DNA from: Minisyncoccia bacterium
GTDB lineage: Bacteria > Patescibacteriota > Minisyncoccia > Phycocordibacterales > UBA918
Reading direction: 5' to 3'
Length of the DNA stretch: 54,727 nt
Assembly (NCBI GenBank): GCA_041750655.1
Contig: JBGSYZ010000010.1
Span: 1-54,727, forward strand
The position numbers and the translations under genes are program-made. Each line of letters opens with the position of its first letter. Positions within the stretch are counted from its first letter, which is position 1. A model generated the notes under the pieces. It did not search any database. It had not been told where the DNA came from and saw only the letters and a list, made by a program, of their open reading frames with translations. Of this stretch, positions 17,523 to 49,779 are shown piece after piece.

Positions 17523-18479
17523 ATGGAATACCTTATTTCAATCATACTGGTCCTACTTTCAGGGTTATTTTCTGGTCTTACGCTAGGACTACTTTCTCTA
17601 GATGTACAGTCGCTCCGTCGCCGCGCTTCGCGCGGCGACTTGGAAGCGATGAAAGTGCTACCAATCCGCAAGCAAGGCAATTTACTACTGACCACACTGC
17701 TGCTTGGTAATGTAACTGTTAATACCACTCTCTCTATTTATCTCGGTAGTATTGCCTCTGGCATCGTCGCCGGAATAACTGCCACTGCTCTTATCGTGCT
17801 TTTTGGGGAAATTATTCCTCAGGCCGTTATATCTCGGTATGCATTGTGGTTTGGTTCCCGGACAATTTGGTTTACTAAGCTGGTTATTTTTGCTTTTTAC
17901 CCAATATCTTGGCCGATTGCTAAGATGCTTGACTACGCATTAGGTAATGAAATGCCGACGGTGTATTCCCATCATGACATTATGGATATAGTGTCTGAAC
18001 TTGAAGATTCAGAGTACAGCCATATTGATGAAGACGAGGAGAGAATTGTCCATGGTGCGTTGCAGTTTTCTCACTTACGAGTACGAGAAATAATGACTCC
18101 GGCTGCAGAAGTGGTGTCTTTTGATGAAAATCAAAAACTAACCGAAGAATTTTTTGAAGAAGTGGTTGGTCATGGGTACTCGAGATTGCCGGTTTTTAGT
18201 GGTAAGAAGGAAAATATCGTCGGTGTGTTATTTGTAAAAGATTTAATTGTTGAAGATGATAATATTTCAATAAAAGATACTGAAGAAGCTTTCGAAAAAG
18301 GGTGTATGTCAGTACGAGGAGAAGATAAACTTGATAGTGTACTCGCTAGGATGTTAAAACAACAAAAACATCTAGCTATAGTAAAAAATCGAAGCGGTCA
18401 GTTTCTCGGGGTTGTTACACTTGAGGATATTATTGAAGAAATTATCCAACAGGAAATTGAAGACGAAGATGATGATTAA
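17523..18479 (+). CDS. CNNM/CorC (DUF21 + CBS) membrane protein
   Basis: LSGLFSGLTLGL, LLTTLLLGN, FGEIIPQA, GYSRLPV, GVVTLEDIIEEI. Confidence 0.93.
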   Translation: MEYLISIILVLLSGLFSGLTLGLLSLDVQSLRRRASRGDLEAMKVLPIRKQGNLLLTTLLLGNVTVNTTLSIYLGSIASGIVAGITATALIVLFGEIIPQAVISRYALWFGSRTIWFTKLVIFAFYPISWPIAKMLDYALGNEMPTVYSHHDIMDIVSELEDSEYSHIDEDEERIVHGALQFSHLRVREIMTPAAEVVSFDENQKLTEEFFEEVVGHGYSRLPVFSGKKENIVGVLFVKDLIVEDDNISIKDTEEAFEKGCMSVRGEDKLDSVLARMLKQQKHLAIVKNRSGQFLGVVTLEDIIEEIIQQEIEDEDDD

Positions 18480-34214: not shown

Positions 34215-34251
34215 CAAATAAAAAGACGGCCACCAGGCCGTCTTTTTATTT

Positions 34252-34563
34252 GTGCTTGGAAAGAAGACACTTGAGTGTCTTCTGGGGCGGGCTCGAACGA
34301 CGGACCGATGTGAGCTTGCGAACAAGGGAGTCGTGTCCCGCGGCACTTAGTAATTTATAAGCGAAGCGAAATAAATTACTTAGTGACCGTCAGGACGAGC
34401 CCTCCCTCCTGTCAGTTACGTGCGGGCTCGAAAGGCGCAACGATGTTGCTTTGCAACGAGTGAGCCGTGGTCAAGAACACTTAGTAGATTCAGAGTGAAA
34501 CGAAAGAATATACTTAGTGATTCGTGACCGAGCCCACCTGTGCGCTTTACGTGCGAGCCCACC
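34252..34563. mobile_element. Two tandem fold-back mini-elements downstream of tRNA-Phe
   Basis: Inverted tRNA end (gtgcttgg + hairpin + ggggcgggctcgaac); two units bounded by gggctcgaa...cgagccc sharing the stem cacttagta/tacttagtg. Confidence 0.65.
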
Positions 34564-41463: not shown

Positions 41464-41595
41464 TGAGATGGCGGGTGGCTGGTTCAACCCGCCACTCGCT
41501 TTTTATATTAAAGTTAACAAAAACTCGCAACACATTCGTAAGTGCTCGTCTATATATTTTGTGGTGCAACATGCACCACATGTCTCCCCGACATT

Positions 41596-41671
41596 TGGTG
41601 ACCGGTACAAGACTTGAACTTGTGACCTCTACAATGTCAATGTAGCGCTCTACCAGCTGAGCTAACCGGTC
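41596..41671 (-). tRNA. tRNA-Val(GAC), CCA encoded
   Basis: gaccggttagctcagctggtagagcg...ttGACat...gttcaagtcttgtaccggtcacca. Confidence 0.95.
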
Positions 41672-41804
41672 TGGTGTTTTGTTCGACAGGCCTCAAAATG
41701 GAAATAATTGAAGTGCCCTGGAGACATTTTAATAGATATCATTCCGTGTCATCGTACAAAAGTGCTAAGATAATAGCATATTGGTTTTAATAATCGAATA
41801 CTAT

Positions 41805-45293: not shown

Positions 45294-45366
45294 TTTTTGA
45301 TTGTATCAGACCTGAACATTCTTTGGGATACCGTGAAATACGTTGAAAAATATAGCTTCTTATTTT

Positions 45367-45555
45367 GTGATCCCACGGGAATCTTTCATTACATGAACGG
45401 TACAGGTTGTCACGATTTTTCATTCTTCAAAATCGTAGGCAACCTTTTCGATTCCCACGTAAGAGTGTCCCACGCTCTTACTCGTGGAATCACAGCGAGT
45501 TTTACATACGAAAAAACGGCTCTAATGAGCCGTTTTTTCGGTAAAACTTACGCTG
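45367..45555. mobile_element. Fold-back mini-element at the tRNA-Glu 3' end
   Basis: Direct copy gtgatcccacgggaatc 45367-83; inverted copy ttcgattccc + hairpin + cgtggaatcac 45447-93. Confidence 0.7.
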
Positions 45556-45627: not shown

Positions 45628-45773
45628 CTAAAACAATCCGGGGGATTGTTTTAGTTGAGTACAATACTCAACACCAATCACCACCGAGTTGTATTGCAGA
45701 CAAAAGCCTACAAGGTGGCCCAAATCATAACAAAATACGACAAAAAAGCTAGTCTAAAATAAGAGCGTCCGAT

Positions 45774-46965: not shown

Positions 46966-47058
46966 GCCCTTTGAAATAGCTATATTTTTAAACGTATTTA
47001 AAATTTAAAAAATTGAAGTCTCACACTCTTGACGTGGGAAGTAGTTGTGTCAAGCTAA

Positions 47059-48301: not shown

Positions 48302-48329
48302 AAAAAACCTACTTCACAGTAGGTTTTTT
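48302..48329 (-). terminator. Terminator downstream of the displaced ftsZ end
   Basis: aaaaaacctac/gtaggtttttt. Confidence 0.7.
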
Positions 48330-48351: not shown

Positions 48352-48552
48352 TTACTTAAGCTTTGACCTTCTCAAGAAGGCCGGAACTGGCGCATATTAC
48401 TAAACTCATTACATTCGTTAAGTATGTGCTGCCCTCAAACAGTCCAGGGGACTGTTTGAGTTGAATGCAAAGACAAATACAAAAAATATTAAGGTAAATT
48501 TCTGGCGGGGGATAGCCACTCACATAGCTACGCCTCGCAGTTCCTTCAAAGC
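48352..48552 (-). mobile_element. Fold-back insertion at the ftsZ 3' end with a duplicated C-terminal coding segment
   Basis: Second copy of [11 protein letters not shown] at 48352-48387; inverted target cgcagttcc 48536-44; internal hairpins. Confidence 0.75.
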
Positions 48553-49779
48553 TTACTTTAGTTTCGACCTTCGAAGAAAGGCTGGAACTGCGCCCCAGTC
48601 ATCGTCATCCTCTTCATCGATTGGGTCAATTGGTTTTGGTTCTGGTTTTGTTATTTCTTTAGGTTTAGTGACCGATACCGGTGTTTCATTCGGTTCTTGG
48701 TCACGTTTAGACAGTGAATTAAAGATACGGCCACGAGTTTCAGCTTCGCCACTCGTGAGCACATTTTCTGTGACAGTGTCGCGAGATGAAGGTCTTACTA
48801 TTGAGTGGGAATGTTCGCTCTCCACTTCAGGGAAGCCAGTTGCAATAACGGTAATCTTAAGTTCGTTCTTCTTAAGCTTTTCGTCTTTGATAGCACCGAA
48901 GATCACCTTAGCGTGTGGATCAATAGACTCAGTAATCACCCGAGCTGCTTCTTGGATTTCAAGCATTCCCATATCGTCACCACCAGCAATAGCGAAGAGT
49001 ACGCCCTTGGCACCCGTGATAGAAACTTCCAAGAGTGGGGAATTGATAGCAGCTTGAGCTGCTTCTTCCGCTCGTTTATCGCCAGCTGAGATACCAATAC
49101 CCATAAGAGCTGAACCAGCGTTTTCCATAACAGAACGAATGTCAGCAAAGTCAACATTGATAATACCTGACATAGTGATGAGATCAGAAATTCCTTCAAC
49201 AGCCTGTTTCAGAATATCGTCACACATTGCGAAGGCATTTTGAATAGAAGTCTCACGGTCGACGATAGCAAGGAGTCTATCGTTGGGGATGGTGATAAGG
49301 GCATCCACTTCTTTTTTAAGAGCTTCGATACCCTGCATCGCCAGACGCATTCGCTCTTGTCCCTCGAAGAGGAACGGTTTGGTGACAACACCAACTGTCA
49401 GTGCCCCACTGTCTCGAGCAATTTTAGCTACCACTGGAGCAGCACCCGTACCTGTTCCACCACCCATTCCACAGGTGACAAAAATCATGTCTGAACCCTT
49501 GATAGAATTGGCTATTTCCTCGCGTGTTTCTTCAGCTGCTCGTTGACCAACTTGGGGGTTACCACCAGCCCCGAGACCACGAGTTAGATTCTTACCGATG
49601 TGGATTTTTTTCTTGGCAAGTGAGTGATGCAAATCTTGGGCGTCACTGTTAATAGCAATGAACTCGACACCTTTAATTTTGTTGCTAATCATGTGATTAA
49701 CAGCATTGTTTCCTGAACCTCCGACACCAGCAACTCGAATTCGAGCAAAAGACTCAACGTCTGATTTTATTTGTTCCAT
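48553..49779 (-). CDS. ftsZ: Cell division protein FtsZ
   Basis: [30 protein letters not shown]. Confidence 0.98.

Follow-up and report, generated by a model that had tools for sequence, protein, structure and literature searches.

A 201-nt structured element in the 3′ end of ftsZ of a Minisyncoccia bacterium belongs, judging from its sequence, to a large family of small non-coding elements

The window, by which we mean the whole analysed stretch of 54,727 nucleotides, carries an ftsZ gene with a trxB-like neighbour (Table 1), and the 3′ end of ftsZ is present there twice. The live tail reads gtt cca gcc ttt ctt cga agg tcg aaa cta aag taa, and the second copy, 201 nt downstream and separated from the first by 165 nt, reads gtt ccg gcc ttc ttg aga agg tca aag ctt aag taa. 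The eight nucleotide differences between them (a/g, t/c, c/t, t/g, c/a, g/a, a/g and a/t) affect 7 of the 11 sense codons and every change is synonymous, as the original prediction of a duplicated and synonymously recoded C-terminal peptide had stated. When eight random substitutions were placed in the live 36-mer, the peptide was kept in 0 of 50,000 simulations. The encoded motif is conserved: an ending [L/I]K was present in 26 of 26 readable relatives, and 25 of them had SKLK. The downstream copy lies outside any open reading frame because it is directly preceded by the in-frame sequence taa tat gcg cca. The 165 nt between the copies are unrelated to ftsZ, and the ORF listing contains no open reading frame inside the 201-nt insert.

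Several parts can be distinguished in this insert. The inverted target expected between the copies is there, since ggaactgcg is the exact reverse complement of cgcagttcc at the junction; we call it guide 2. Another short complement, guide 1, is perfect for the downstream copy but not for the live one; its sequence is identical in the congeneric locus L018, and L015 has the covarying pair gttttga/tcaaaac. The better fit of guide 1 to the downstream copy speaks against a simple picture in which the element carries its own matching tail. Hairpins had also been predicted, and the 12-bp stem ctcaaacagtcc/ggactgtttgag was located at 48460-48434. It occurs once in the window, where zero occurrences are expected by chance. 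The 311-nt region folds better than its shuffled versions (z −5.68; 0 of 100 shuffles equally good). The terminator placed behind the downstream copy was only partly recovered: sequence and fold give a hairpin at this position, but the consensus terminator scan did not return it. Both halves of a structure that we call module B can be made out by eye in comparison with L018; their divergence is too great for profile and covariance model (CM) searches, both of which missed the second half. The leader-like module of the insert is also found immediately 5′ of tRNA-Glu, two tRNA-Ala genes, tRNA-Trp and tmRNA in the same genome. The label 'promoter' for this module was dropped because scans detected no sigma-70-like promoter on the element strand or upstream of tRNA-Glu. 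With the 321-nt locus as query, blastn-short found no second copy of the ftsZ element in the genome.

Table 1. Features of the ftsZ region and two further element sites in the window.
Feature	Position	Strand	Basis or remark
Two tandem B-type elements behind tRNA-Phe	34216-34545	plus	R1 = 101.7 bits at 34389-34529
A-type element in tRNA-Glu(ttc)	45359-45554	minus	replacement end, terminator, guide (cgctgtgattccacgag), module A, displaced 3′ end 45359-45379
trxB-like gene, 308 aa	47327-48253	minus	conserved neighbour downstream of ftsZ
Terminator-like hairpin with A-tract and T-tract flanks	48302-48329	minus	fold; insert-free loci have a hairpin there before trxB
Displaced copy T of ftsZ tail, 36 nt	48352-48387	minus	intact, outside any ORF; probably the native end
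201-nt non-coding structured element	48388-48588	minus	inserted at Ala|Val codon boundary, 11 codons before ftsZ stop
Diverged module B second-half hairpin (gggcagcacatactta...tttagtaatatgcgcc)	48389-48433	minus	fold; comparison with L018
Leader-like module, tgcattcaact plus perfect 12-bp hairpin	48434-48470	minus	stem with compensatory changes
Module B first-half remnant (..gcgtagctatgtgag-hairpin-ccccgcc)	48504-48535	minus	comparison with L018, L015, L017, alignment A1
Guide 2, ggaactgcg	48536-48544	minus	reverse complement of target junction
Guide 1, gctttga	48546-48552	minus	immediately 3′ of stop codon; complement of tcaaagc (Ser-Lys-Leu codons)
Live tail copy T′, 36 nt, C-terminal 11 residues plus stop	48588->48553	minus	probably element-supplied, from rplE analogy
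Target junction cgcagttcc, Ala-Val-Pro codons	48584-48592	minus	pairs with guide 2; spans left duplication boundary
ftsZ CDS, 408 aa	48553-49779	minus	ORF listing

The tail duplication is not an assembly artefact. Contigs of the Logan collection from two runs (6167 nt and 1705 nt), which may represent the source sample, span both copies with 0 differences, and a run of another study gave two identical 151-nt unitigs over 48362-48512 and 48516-48666. The two copies are therefore linked in contigs built from reads, whereas the original prediction would have fallen had no reads spanned both. A merging of the ftsZ ends of two strains might be suspected from the metagenomic source and from the likeness of the copies to strain alleles. 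It is made extremely improbable by these contigs and unitigs, by the unrelated DNA between the copies and by the same architecture in the assemblies of 13 other species. In the contigs aligned to the locus there were no joints of an excised or empty form or of a circle, and the metagenome contigs scanned gave 0 matches to an empty-site allele of this strain. None of the RNA runs listed contains this stretch.

It is instructive to compare the ftsZ loci of the congeners. An insert is present at the same codon boundary in 14 of 21 readable loci (13 of 20 if that of the window is excluded), and the stretch read at the other seven has none; in five of these (L003, L007, L011, L019 and L022) trxB follows within 300 nt, as it does at three of five ftsZ loci from other families. 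This distribution supports the earlier claim that an element has integrated into the ftsZ tail. Among the filled loci the second tail is intact in nine (the window and eight others) and truncated in five. Second and live tails differ in 0 to 13 of 36 nt, always synonymously, and for loci with at least eight differences an all-synonymous outcome was obtained in 0 of 50,000 simulations. The differences are small in L004 (0/36) and L017 (2/36). The locus L018 has the same two tail alleles as the window in the opposite order together with the same guide, and by manual count its live tail matches the downstream copy T of the window at 34 of 36 positions. The exclusively synonymous differences and the swapped alleles argue for the suggested origin of the replacement end in another lineage. 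In a sliding-window comparison of ftsZ with 20 congeners the nearest neighbour did not change, all of them being about 80% identical and saturated, so that this comparison has no power to tell which tail is native. The larger cargo-bearing forms for which a search at this site had been suggested were not found, and neither was a recombinase-bearing form.

Guide 2 follows its target. Of the filled ftsZ loci, 7 of 14 contain the 9-mer complement of the live junction without any mismatch, versus 0 of 12 empty ones, and the covarying combinations are gtt/ggaac, gtg/ggcac and gta/ggtac. At L004 and L002 the guide is complementary to the D-W-G-A codons left of the boundary instead. On this comparison the inverted target can be regarded as a constant feature of the element that covaries with the target.

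The ftsZ insert is, as far as sequence comparison tells, one member of a large family of structured non-coding elements of 110-560 nt, located mainly at the T-loops of tRNA and tmRNA genes. The genome of the window contains at least 54 module matches, 29 of which lie within 800 nt downstream of a tRNA or tmRNA gene on the same strand. At least one module follows 23 of its 39 tRNA and tmRNA genes, and the last 14 nt of the gene are repeated 88-570 nt downstream at 13 of the 39. All members share one anatomy. The replacement 3′ end may be accompanied by a terminator or a small cargo; a guide forms the Watson-Crick complement of the target, either at the crossover point or beside it; and conserved hairpin modules, A, B or both, are present along with the displaced native 3′ end. 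In tRNA elements the terminator-like hairpin usually stands 5′ of the guide. The elements always lie on the sense strand, and a minority occupies 3′ ends of protein genes (ftsZ, rplE and others). The ftsZ insert has the parts by which we recognise the family: sense orientation at a gene 3′ end, a replacement end, guides 1 and 2, the two halves of module B (by eye) and a displaced copy.

Across genomes of the ultra-small CPR bacteria the junction is almost always ...CGTGACC|GA(A/G/T)TCC, which is inside the T-loop. A tRNA or tmRNA gene lies upstream on the same strand in 67 of 81 pattern instances, in 64 cases within 561 nt and in the others at 926, 1112 and 1940 nt. The complement of a 12-mer from the T-loop and T-stem of the element's own tRNA was present, with at most one mismatch, in 28 of 43 cases versus 0.1% of 1338 mismatched pairings, and agreement of the 9 nt behind the junction with this tRNA was seen in 24 of 43 cases versus 0%. 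Module B has compensatory changes at 13 of 25 predicted pairs and retains one G·U pair in 53 of 56 sequences. Copy number ranges from 0 to 29 among congeners; 38 of 39 have at least one copy and one genome, 99% complete, has none. Matches were found in just 5 of 120 other genomes sampled evenly over the phylum; the family is patchy across Patescibacteria. Presence and absence vary at orthologous ftsZ, rplE and tRNA-Leu sites, tandem arrays and decayed copies occur, and the duplicated segment is about 11-55 nt long. No Rfam family was found for the elements. The literature searched, including a search for terms within bioRxiv 10.64898/2026.10.21.760802, contained no description of such elements, and the family is apparently undescribed. 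A scan of viral contigs with the end motif of module B gave nine matches, all of them chance occurrences in coding sequence without the module.

Which of the two ends is the newcomer can be judged better at other genes. In rplE (uL5) of the same genome the downstream copy encodes a tail of native type (PLQKPVEEVTK*) and the live tail is short; the two diverge in length and sequence right after a core of about 11 nt. Element-bearing rplE alleles have shortened live tails such as QKVE*, and element-free alleles have the longer native ones. Since the downstream tail is of native type and the live one is shortened, the rplE element supplies the live end. At three tRNA genes (tRNA-Ala, tRNA-Leu and tRNA-Thr) the CCA is present in the live copy and missing from the downstream copy. 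By analogy, the live ftsZ tail T′ would be supplied by the element, with the downstream copy T as the native end. The original prediction had made the same claim, and it gains support from the rplE tails and the CCA pattern, not from the ftsZ locus itself.

The elements are not linked to any recombinase, transposase or reverse transcriptase. The genome of the window (98.8% complete) encodes two large serine recombinases and a single Xer-like tyrosine recombinase, the latter on another contig. It had 0 matches to the IS110 DEDD recombinase (PF01548), which was detected in control genomes, and likewise 0 to Y1 transposase (PF01797), TnpB (PF07282) and reverse transcriptase (PF00078); clustering of its open reading frames revealed no multi-copy transposase-like family. 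The 3-kb flanks of the fetched CPR loci lack a recurrent recombinase, their protein clusters being housekeeping neighbours alone. Recombinase counts do not follow element copy number: where 15-19 copies occur, the genome has a single tyrosine recombinase and none of the serine type, and the genome with 0 copies has seven serine recombinases. Large serine recombinases were rejected as the mobilising enzyme because their counts do not track copy number. A link to kink-turn RNAs and L7Ae or Nop proteins (TIGR-Tas-like) was also considered and dropped, the genome having no L7Ae or Nop domain.

How do these elements compare with known systems? Integrative elements with tyrosine integrases enter the 3′ part of tRNA and tmRNA genes or of protein genes and fall into sublocation classes, the T-loop among them; cis-mobilizable elements (CIMEs) are their integrase-less derivatives and undergo accretion. 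With them the family shares the insertion within a gene, the replacement 3′ end, the displaced partial copy as far direct repeat, the crossover in the T-loop and the tandem accumulation. The differences are the size of 110-560 nt, the lack of an integrase inside or beside the element, the recombinase content uncorrelated with copy number, and the presence of a covarying target complement and RNA-like structured modules. Passages of PMC9897764 give a restored gene together with direct repeats of its 3′ end as a hallmark of integration into tRNA genes; both features are found here. The MITE model does not apply, since the ends (gttcc... and ...gcgcca) are not inverted repeats and the duplication has no fixed length. 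The pattern of a diversity-generating retroelement is also lacking: there is no reverse transcriptase, and the differences are all synonymous and not confined to adenines.

Other systems share the guide-like pairing. IS110/IS1111 elements carry at their end a structured non-coding RNA, in which short target-complementary segments set the insertion site. Target-complementary segments in structured non-coding sequence are common to our family and to these bridge or seek RNA elements (the subject of PMC11208160 and PMC11208158). However, the genome has no DEDD (RuvC-like) recombinase, encoded with such an RNA or otherwise; pairing of the guide involves 9-20 nt of just one strand; our elements bring along a long replacement end; and no separate donor-binding loop was identified. 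IS200/IS605 elements and the TnpB omega RNA are small and rich in hairpins, an internal guide pairs with a single-stranded DNA target, and non-autonomous mini-copies exist. Small size, many hairpins and guide-like pairing are shared, but the guide here has 9-20 nt, not 4, the target 3′ end is duplicated, Y1 and TnpB are lacking, and the Rfam match to IS605-orfB-II reached 19.1 bits versus a gathering threshold of 88. In IMEX of the CTX-phage type, folded single-stranded DNA is integrated by the host Xer system and an inverted-copy hairpin imitates the duplex target; hybrid site, loop and inverted copy stand together at one junction, the target is regenerated and arrays build up. The junction layout of target and inverted copy and the arrays are similar here. 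The elements differ in having many target genes, not dif, in the absence of a recognisable dif-like core and in their RNA-like modules; a single Xer-like gene is present, and targeting of many genes argues against an Xer-dependent IMEX. Finally, in group I and II introns an internal guide pairs with the exon at the insertion site of a sense-oriented, structured insert. The elements share the internal guide complementary to the insertion site, the orientation and the structure, but they have neither an intron (ribozyme) core nor an Rfam match at gathering thresholds or at E values up to 5-10, reverse transcriptase and homing endonuclease are absent, and the exon end is duplicated, the downstream copy often being truncated.

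Our preferred reading is that an element of this family integrated into the ftsZ tail with its own replacement end and displaced the native tail, to which we assign a probability of about 0.7. That such an element was inserted in ftsZ and brought the live tail with it seems to us very probable. The element would have entered at the Ala|Val boundary, its 5′ part fully replacing the essential ftsZ tail; because the replacement tail is fully synonymous, the FtsZ protein is unchanged. The native tail would have been displaced downstream, beside the old terminator and trxB. The target would be chosen by base pairing of the guide, acting as RNA or as folded single-stranded DNA, with exchange at the left edge of the duplicated segment and regeneration of the complete target at the left junction; tandem arrays would follow from this regeneration. 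The enzyme of integration would act in trans. By gene transfer and recombination the elements may further reach orthologous sites in other species, and the existence of the two ftsZ tails as saturated synonymous alleles would follow from such movement. That targeting is truly guide-directed is possible, though we hold it to be somewhat less probable than the contrary. How both the guide and the replacement end are re-set for a new target is not explained by the proposed mechanism.

The anatomy, the guide-target and intra-module covariation, the presence/absence and copy-number variation, the tandem arrays and the lack of a linked recombinase are observed. A bolder proposal built on them is a new class of protein-less 'guide-and-patch' mobile elements of 110-560 nt. 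The structured RNA of such an element, or its folded single strand, would recognise the target by base pairing and steer integration, either with the help of a host or CPR enzyme or by its own catalysis, and the patch would repair the split gene. On this view tRNA T-loops and the tails of essential genes such as ftsZ and rplE would lie open to colonisation across Patescibacteria. We put this forward as speculation and consider it rather doubtful.

Other explanations of the ftsZ insert have to be weighed against the preferred reading. It could be a relic of classical integration, in which a phage or island entered by means of its tyrosine or serine integrase, with a replacement end in its attP, and was later mostly deleted, leaving an attL-attR mini-element like the CIMEs of ICEs, with incidental complementarity to the target. 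The direct repeats and the restored gene are the textbook signature of tRNA integration (in the same passages of PMC9897764), the crossover in the T-loop and accretion-like arrays fit as well, and in the genome of the window tRNA-Gln and tRNA-Glu have large serine recombinase genes nearby. Such a relic is nevertheless unlikely: nearly all tRNA-linked instances lie close to their gene (64 of 67 within 561 nt) and no recombinase was shown in the three farther ones, the flanks of 3 kb lack a recurrent recombinase, copy number and recombinase counts mismatch, and island decay predicts neither the RNA-like module covariation nor that of guide and target. Another course would begin with an insertion that locally duplicated the 3′ end of its target, perhaps with an inverted copy that became the guide, followed by replacement of the upstream gene and tail through homologous recombination with the element-bearing allele of another species. 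It would easily provide target-specific parts at new targets, and it agrees with the identical or near-identical copies at L004 and L017, with the two alleles shared by L001 and L018 in reversed order with the same guide, and with some duplications at tRNA loci that reach the trailer or terminator. The tRNA-Ile on contig C6, L174 and L189 are of this last kind and look more like local duplication. Against it stand the rplE tails, which differ after the core of about 11 nt with the downstream one of native type, the confinement of CCA to the live copy at three tRNA genes and the variable duplicated length. It would also need a process that copies a target once directly and once in interrupted inverted form, and we know of none; we judge this course improbable.

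Two further readings take the insert for a functional RNA. An intron-like RNA, with the guide as group I internal guide sequence or group II EBS, would be spliced out and the downstream tail expressed; the guide would pair with the end of the '5′ exon' or, alternatively, with the beginning of the downstream copy. The topology resembles P1/P10, as the guide pairs with 3-13 nt left of the boundary and with the first bases of either copy; the sense orientation, the conserved G·U pair, GA-rich internal loops of the modules and the intact downstream copies at 9 of 14 ftsZ loci are also in keeping with it. Splicing at the other five loci, where the downstream copy is truncated after about 12 nt, would however destroy FtsZ. 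Together with the lack of an Rfam match to group I or II introns or ribozymes, a size of 110-250 nt that is below known self-splicing cores, the terminator-like hairpin that usually precedes the guide in tRNA elements and a genome without reverse transcriptase for DNA mobility, this makes the intron-like reading quite improbable. A resident RNA, that is a 3′-UTR or trailer structure or a tRNA-like small RNA serving the processing or stability of the upstream gene, would account for the strong conservation of sequence and structure over distant CPR lineages and for the leader-like hairpin in front of mature tRNA 5′ ends; guide 1, the hairpin, guide 2 and the downstream copy together can even mimic an acceptor/T-arm helix. 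Its absence from a 99%-complete genome within a range of 0-29 copies among congeners, its match in 5 of 120 other genomes of the phylum sample, the variable occupation of orthologous ftsZ, rplE and tRNA-Leu sites and the tandem and decayed copies make this role very unlikely.

If the preferred reading is correct, then reduced CPR genomes (about 0.9 Mb), nearly without classical transposons, have been colonised by dozens of tiny non-coding elements, which enter the most conserved genes of the cell and are made harmless by the spare end that they carry. The covariation of guide and target and the lack of a linked recombinase point to an insertion system that is compact, at about 150-200 nt, and possibly guided by RNA; such a system would be relevant to the biology of mobile elements and to genome engineering. 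The elements mark horizontal exchange among CPR species, and in CPR genomes they will mislead annotators of tRNA genes, of 3′ UTRs and of small RNAs. They create partial tRNA copies and alternative protein tails, and uL5 has actually been shortened.

The last 36 nt of ftsZ occur twice in the window, as originally predicted. The downstream copy differs from the live tail (the end of the ORF) by 8 nt in 7 of 11 codons, with the peptide unchanged, and this all-synonymous outcome appeared in none of 50,000 simulations placing 8 random substitutions in the tail. The second tail has an in-frame stop codon ahead of it and no start codon. The inverted target was recovered as well, cgcagttcc being exactly complemented by ggaactgcg, and the hairpins reported between the copies include a perfect one of 12 bp. 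The terminator placed after the second copy appears in the fold as an A/T-flanked hairpin, but the consensus scan does not list it. The whole region folds far better than its shuffles (z -5.68). Strain-merging assembly, in which reads would not span both copies, does not account for the duplication: contigs from two runs, which may be the source sample of the assembly, cover both tails with 0 differences, and a run of a different study has 151-nt pieces that match the insert and the live end exactly.

Coordinates of the ftsZ duplication and of related features in the window and in other contigs (C) of its genome
Feature	Position	Strand	Remark
ftsZ CDS, 408 aa	49779 to 48553	minus	ORF call
Live ftsZ tail, last 36 nt	48588-48553	minus	sequence comparison
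Second copy of 36-nt ftsZ tail	48387-48352	minus	sequence comparison
Target cgcagttcc	48592-48584	minus	
Complement ggaactgcg	48544-48536	minus	
12-bp hairpin	48460-48434	minus	
Terminator-like hairpin	48329-48302	minus	
rplE with B-type element	C7:74440-75250		L202/L203
tRNA-Val element, 570 nt	C15:5900-6480		
A-type modules not near tRNA	C17:102633-102864; C17:118135-118866; C7:27671; C7:38457		among others
A-type module behind protein ORF	C17:29735		palindrome spans stop codon
Leader-like motif with hairpin	45628-45690	minus	
Leader-like motif in ftsZ element	48434-48470		
Further leader-like motif sites	C5 ~41545-41700; C9 ~18245-18330; C11 ~118900-118988; C7 ~103500-103530		
Region of large serine recombinase gene and ~135-nt repeat	1-1800	minus	
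~135-nt repeat, second site	C14:28838-29045		after tRNA-Gln, contig end
22-nt inverted repeat	45336-45357 / 46978-46999		95% complementary
Small ORF, 151 aa	between the 22-nt repeats	minus	
Small ORF, 170 aa	between the 22-nt repeats	plus	membrane-like

The conserved FtsZ tail ending in [L/I]K is present in all 26 readable loci, which come from the genus and from other families of its order. An element integrated into this tail had been proposed, and alignment of the ftsZ 3′ regions revealed an insert at an identical codon boundary in 14 of 21 readable genus loci and none in the stretch read of the other 7. Among the latter, trxB lies less than 300 nt from the stop codon in L003, L007, L011, L019 and L022; the L010 contig ends 84 nt past the stop, and L005 has a different downstream region. 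The second tail is intact in nine filled loci (the window's own L001, and L004, L008, L009, L013, L015, L016, L017, L018) and truncated after ~12 nt in five (L002, L006, L012, L014, L021). Several loci (L002, L008, L016) carry two or three elements in tandem. In the other families the insert is absent from all five readable loci, with trxB within 300 nt in three (L026, L027, L030). A Candidatus Paceibacteria MAG, the closest named relative among the records fetched (FtsZ 75% identical), shows this arrangement too, its second copy being decayed. Second and live tails differ by 0, 2, 5, 8, 8, 10, 12, 13 and 13 nt and the peptide is never altered, therefore both copies evolved as working ends. 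In most genomes the two tails diverge as much as those of two random congeners, and L018 has the window's two alleles in reversed order.

Directly after the stop codon, the ftsZ inserts carry a short segment, the guide, complementary to ftsZ coding sequence at or beside the duplication boundary. The window-type guide pairs with GCN-GTN-CC through covarying pairs (gtt/ggaac, gtg/ggcac, gta/ggtac), and a perfect 9-mer complement is found in 7 of 14 filled loci versus 0 of 12 empty ones; in L004 and L002 the guide is complementary to the D-W-G-A codons immediately left of the boundary. After the guide come module B (..CGGAGCG..-hairpin-..GCGAGNCGGGG, then the long hairpin UCGAGAGUACUUAG...CUUAGUAACUCGUGACC) and/or module A (AGGUUGCC-hairpin-GACAACCUGNACNG-hairpin, with a UGUAA loop), whose end adjoins the second copy. 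The same anatomy is seen behind tRNA genes. There the order begins with the intact tRNA 3′ end, often followed by a terminator-like hairpin, then guide 1, complementary to the acceptor 3′ strand, a small hairpin, and guide 2, complementary to the T-stem 3′ strand and T-loop and extending 3 nt beyond the boundary; module A or B and a second tRNA copy from T-loop position 57 on complete the element. Guide 1 is a true complement: at tRNA-Ala it has A3, whereas the 5′ strand of that tRNA has G3.

When 56 copies of module B from a range of CPR (Patescibacteria) were aligned, the consensus fold had 25 pairs. Compensatory changes occur at 13 of these (for example CG 22 / GC 21 / AU 9, or UA 29 / CG 26), and one G.U pair is retained in 53 of 56 sequences. 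This pattern identifies the functional strand as the sense strand of the target gene, and would fit that strand either as RNA or as single-stranded DNA. Rfam 15 gave no family, at gathering thresholds for the whole window with its three elements or at relaxed E-values. In the window's insert, tgcattcaact and the 12-bp hairpin take the place of part of the first half of module B, and the second half has diverged, which is why profiles and covariance model missed this copy.

The window's own genome (906 kb, 17 contigs, 98.8% complete) contains 21 B-type and 33 A-type modules (profile search, E < 0.01). Of these 54, 29 follow a tRNA or tmRNA gene on the same strand at a distance of at most 800 nt, and 23 of the 39 such genes bear at least one; in 13 of the 39 the last 14 nt are repeated 88-570 nt downstream with at most two mismatches. 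Protein-gene targets include a 719-aa ORF, rplE and a 661-aa ORF, among others. For about 21 A-type modules there is no tRNA nearby; some stand right behind protein ORFs, with a palindrome spanning the stop codon, and others in tandem in intergenic DNA. The tRNA-Val element has, between replacement end and guide, a ~75-aa ORF with a terminator of its own, so small cargo is possible.

Beyond this genome, an exact-motif scan covering a single genome per species found at least 126 stretches. Among the matches listed nearly all are labelled Patescibacteria (Saccharibacteria, Paceibacteria, Yonath-, Nomura-, Kaiser-, Campbell-, Lloyd- and Zambryskiibacteria), and almost all show the junction ...CGTGACC|GA(A/G/T)TCC. 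Flanks were fetched for loci among these matches, five loci being dropped as non-CPR chance matches or overlapping duplicates. A same-strand tRNA or tmRNA lies upstream in 67 of the resulting 81 instances (within 561 nt in 64), and 9 of the 14 others sit in loci whose sequence breaks off less than 400 nt upstream. In 43 instances, again among the matches listed, with a tRNA end less than 260 nt upstream, a 12-mer complement of the own tRNA's T-loop/T-stem (at most one mismatch) occurs in 28, versus 0.1% of 1338 mismatched pairings. The 9 nt past the junction match the own tRNA, with at most one mismatch, in 24 of the 43 (controls 0), and guide 1 varies more (present in 10 of 43 versus 1.3% in controls). 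A covariance model built from the 56-copy alignment detected 0-29 copies per genome and at least one in 38 of 39 congeners, the exception being 99% complete; matches occurred in at least 5 of 120 other genomes of an even phylum sample, a lower bound given stricter filters and 25 candidates scored per genome. Copy-number range, presence or absence at orthologous ftsZ, rplE and tRNA-Leu sites, tandem arrays and truncated copies speak for an element that multiplies and moves horizontally, and against a fixed RNA gene. Two complete B-type modules (L064/L065) near tRNA-Trp lie in JBLHQB010000003.1, a contig of a Flavobacteriaceae-labelled MAG (Patiriisocius sp.), probably a mis-binned CPR contig and not spread beyond CPR.

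Which copy, then, is native? The original prediction had the element supplying a replacement end, and rplE (uL5) upholds this for the family. In 30 congener loci, terminator-adjoined alleles end in ...PLQK[P/E/A/K]E plus 3-6 more residues, and the tails of alleles followed by the element hairpin are short or altered (QKVE*, QKAE*, QK*, VAKAE*, QVKTV*; five or six loci). In the own genome a B-type element has shortened the live tail to PLQKVE*, and the downstream copy, PLQKPVEEVTK*, is of native type. These tail types settle for the family that the live end was brought by the element, the native end being displaced and surviving as the downstream copy. At ftsZ itself, where identity to congeners is ~80% along the gene and the nearest neighbour changes nowhere along it, this assignment would follow by analogy. 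An encoded CCA restricted to the live copy at tRNA-Ala, tRNA-Leu-taa and tRNA-Thr-ggt agrees with rplE. Two observations do not fit neatly: the window's guide 1, gctttga, is perfect to the downstream copy (tcaaagc) and imperfect to the live one (tcgaaac), and at a few tRNA loci the repeat continues into the trailer or terminator. Recombination among elements or alleles of different species could be the source of both.

No protein accompanies the elements, and the 3-kb flanks of CPR loci contain no recurrent recombinase. The own genome encodes a single tyrosine recombinase, Xer-like and 305 aa long, together with two large serine recombinases; IS110 DEDD, TnpB, Y1 transposase, reverse transcriptase, L7Ae, Nop domain and any multi-copy transposase-like family were all absent from it. 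Most genomes of the genus have exactly one tyrosine recombinase. Serine recombinases do not track the elements, with 19 and 15 copies in genomes having none and 0 copies in one having seven. The anatomy leads us to prefer guide-directed integration, in which the guide would pick the target by base pairing as RNA, like a bridge RNA or intron guide. Alternatively, the guide might act within a folded single strand, its stem mimicking the target as in CTX-type integration. Under guide-directed integration, exchange would take place at the left boundary of the duplication and restore the target at the left junction, allowing repeated insertion and arrays. Spread between species at one gene would need no special enzyme, as homology for recombination following DNA uptake could come from the conserved gene to the left and the displaced copy to the right.

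We place the family among gene-end-restoring integrative elements. In contrast to the integrase-borne ones, its members are tiny, lack an integrase, and possess a covarying target complement and RNA-like modules. Of MITEs, IS110, IS200/IS605-TnpB, group I/II introns and DGRs, each has a defining feature that the family lacks. Neither full-text literature searches nor Rfam yielded a description of this kind of family, although one may exist; that it is a truly new, guide-directed, protein-less class we regard as doubtful (probability about 0.3).

Other repeats were noticed near tRNAs and recombinases. A conserved leader-like motif (..GAGTATTGCACTCAACT with a hairpin that shows compensatory changes) stops exactly where tRNA-Glu, two tRNA-Ala, tRNA-Trp and tmRNA have their first base, is tandemly duplicated ahead of tRNA-Ala on contig C5, and occurs within the ftsZ element; the consensus scan shows no promoter in it. 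It might serve as a 5′ leader or in processing, or represent an insert of a second kind. The serine recombinase gene at the window start is preceded by a ~135-nt repeat terminating in ..GCGAGGCGGGGG beside a T-loop-like GTTCGAGCC, and the second such gene lies near tRNA-Glu(ctc) on contig C12; these regions may be integrated elements that break the assembly. The 22-nt inverted repeat flanks 1620 nt containing tRNA-Glu with its element and the two small ORFs.
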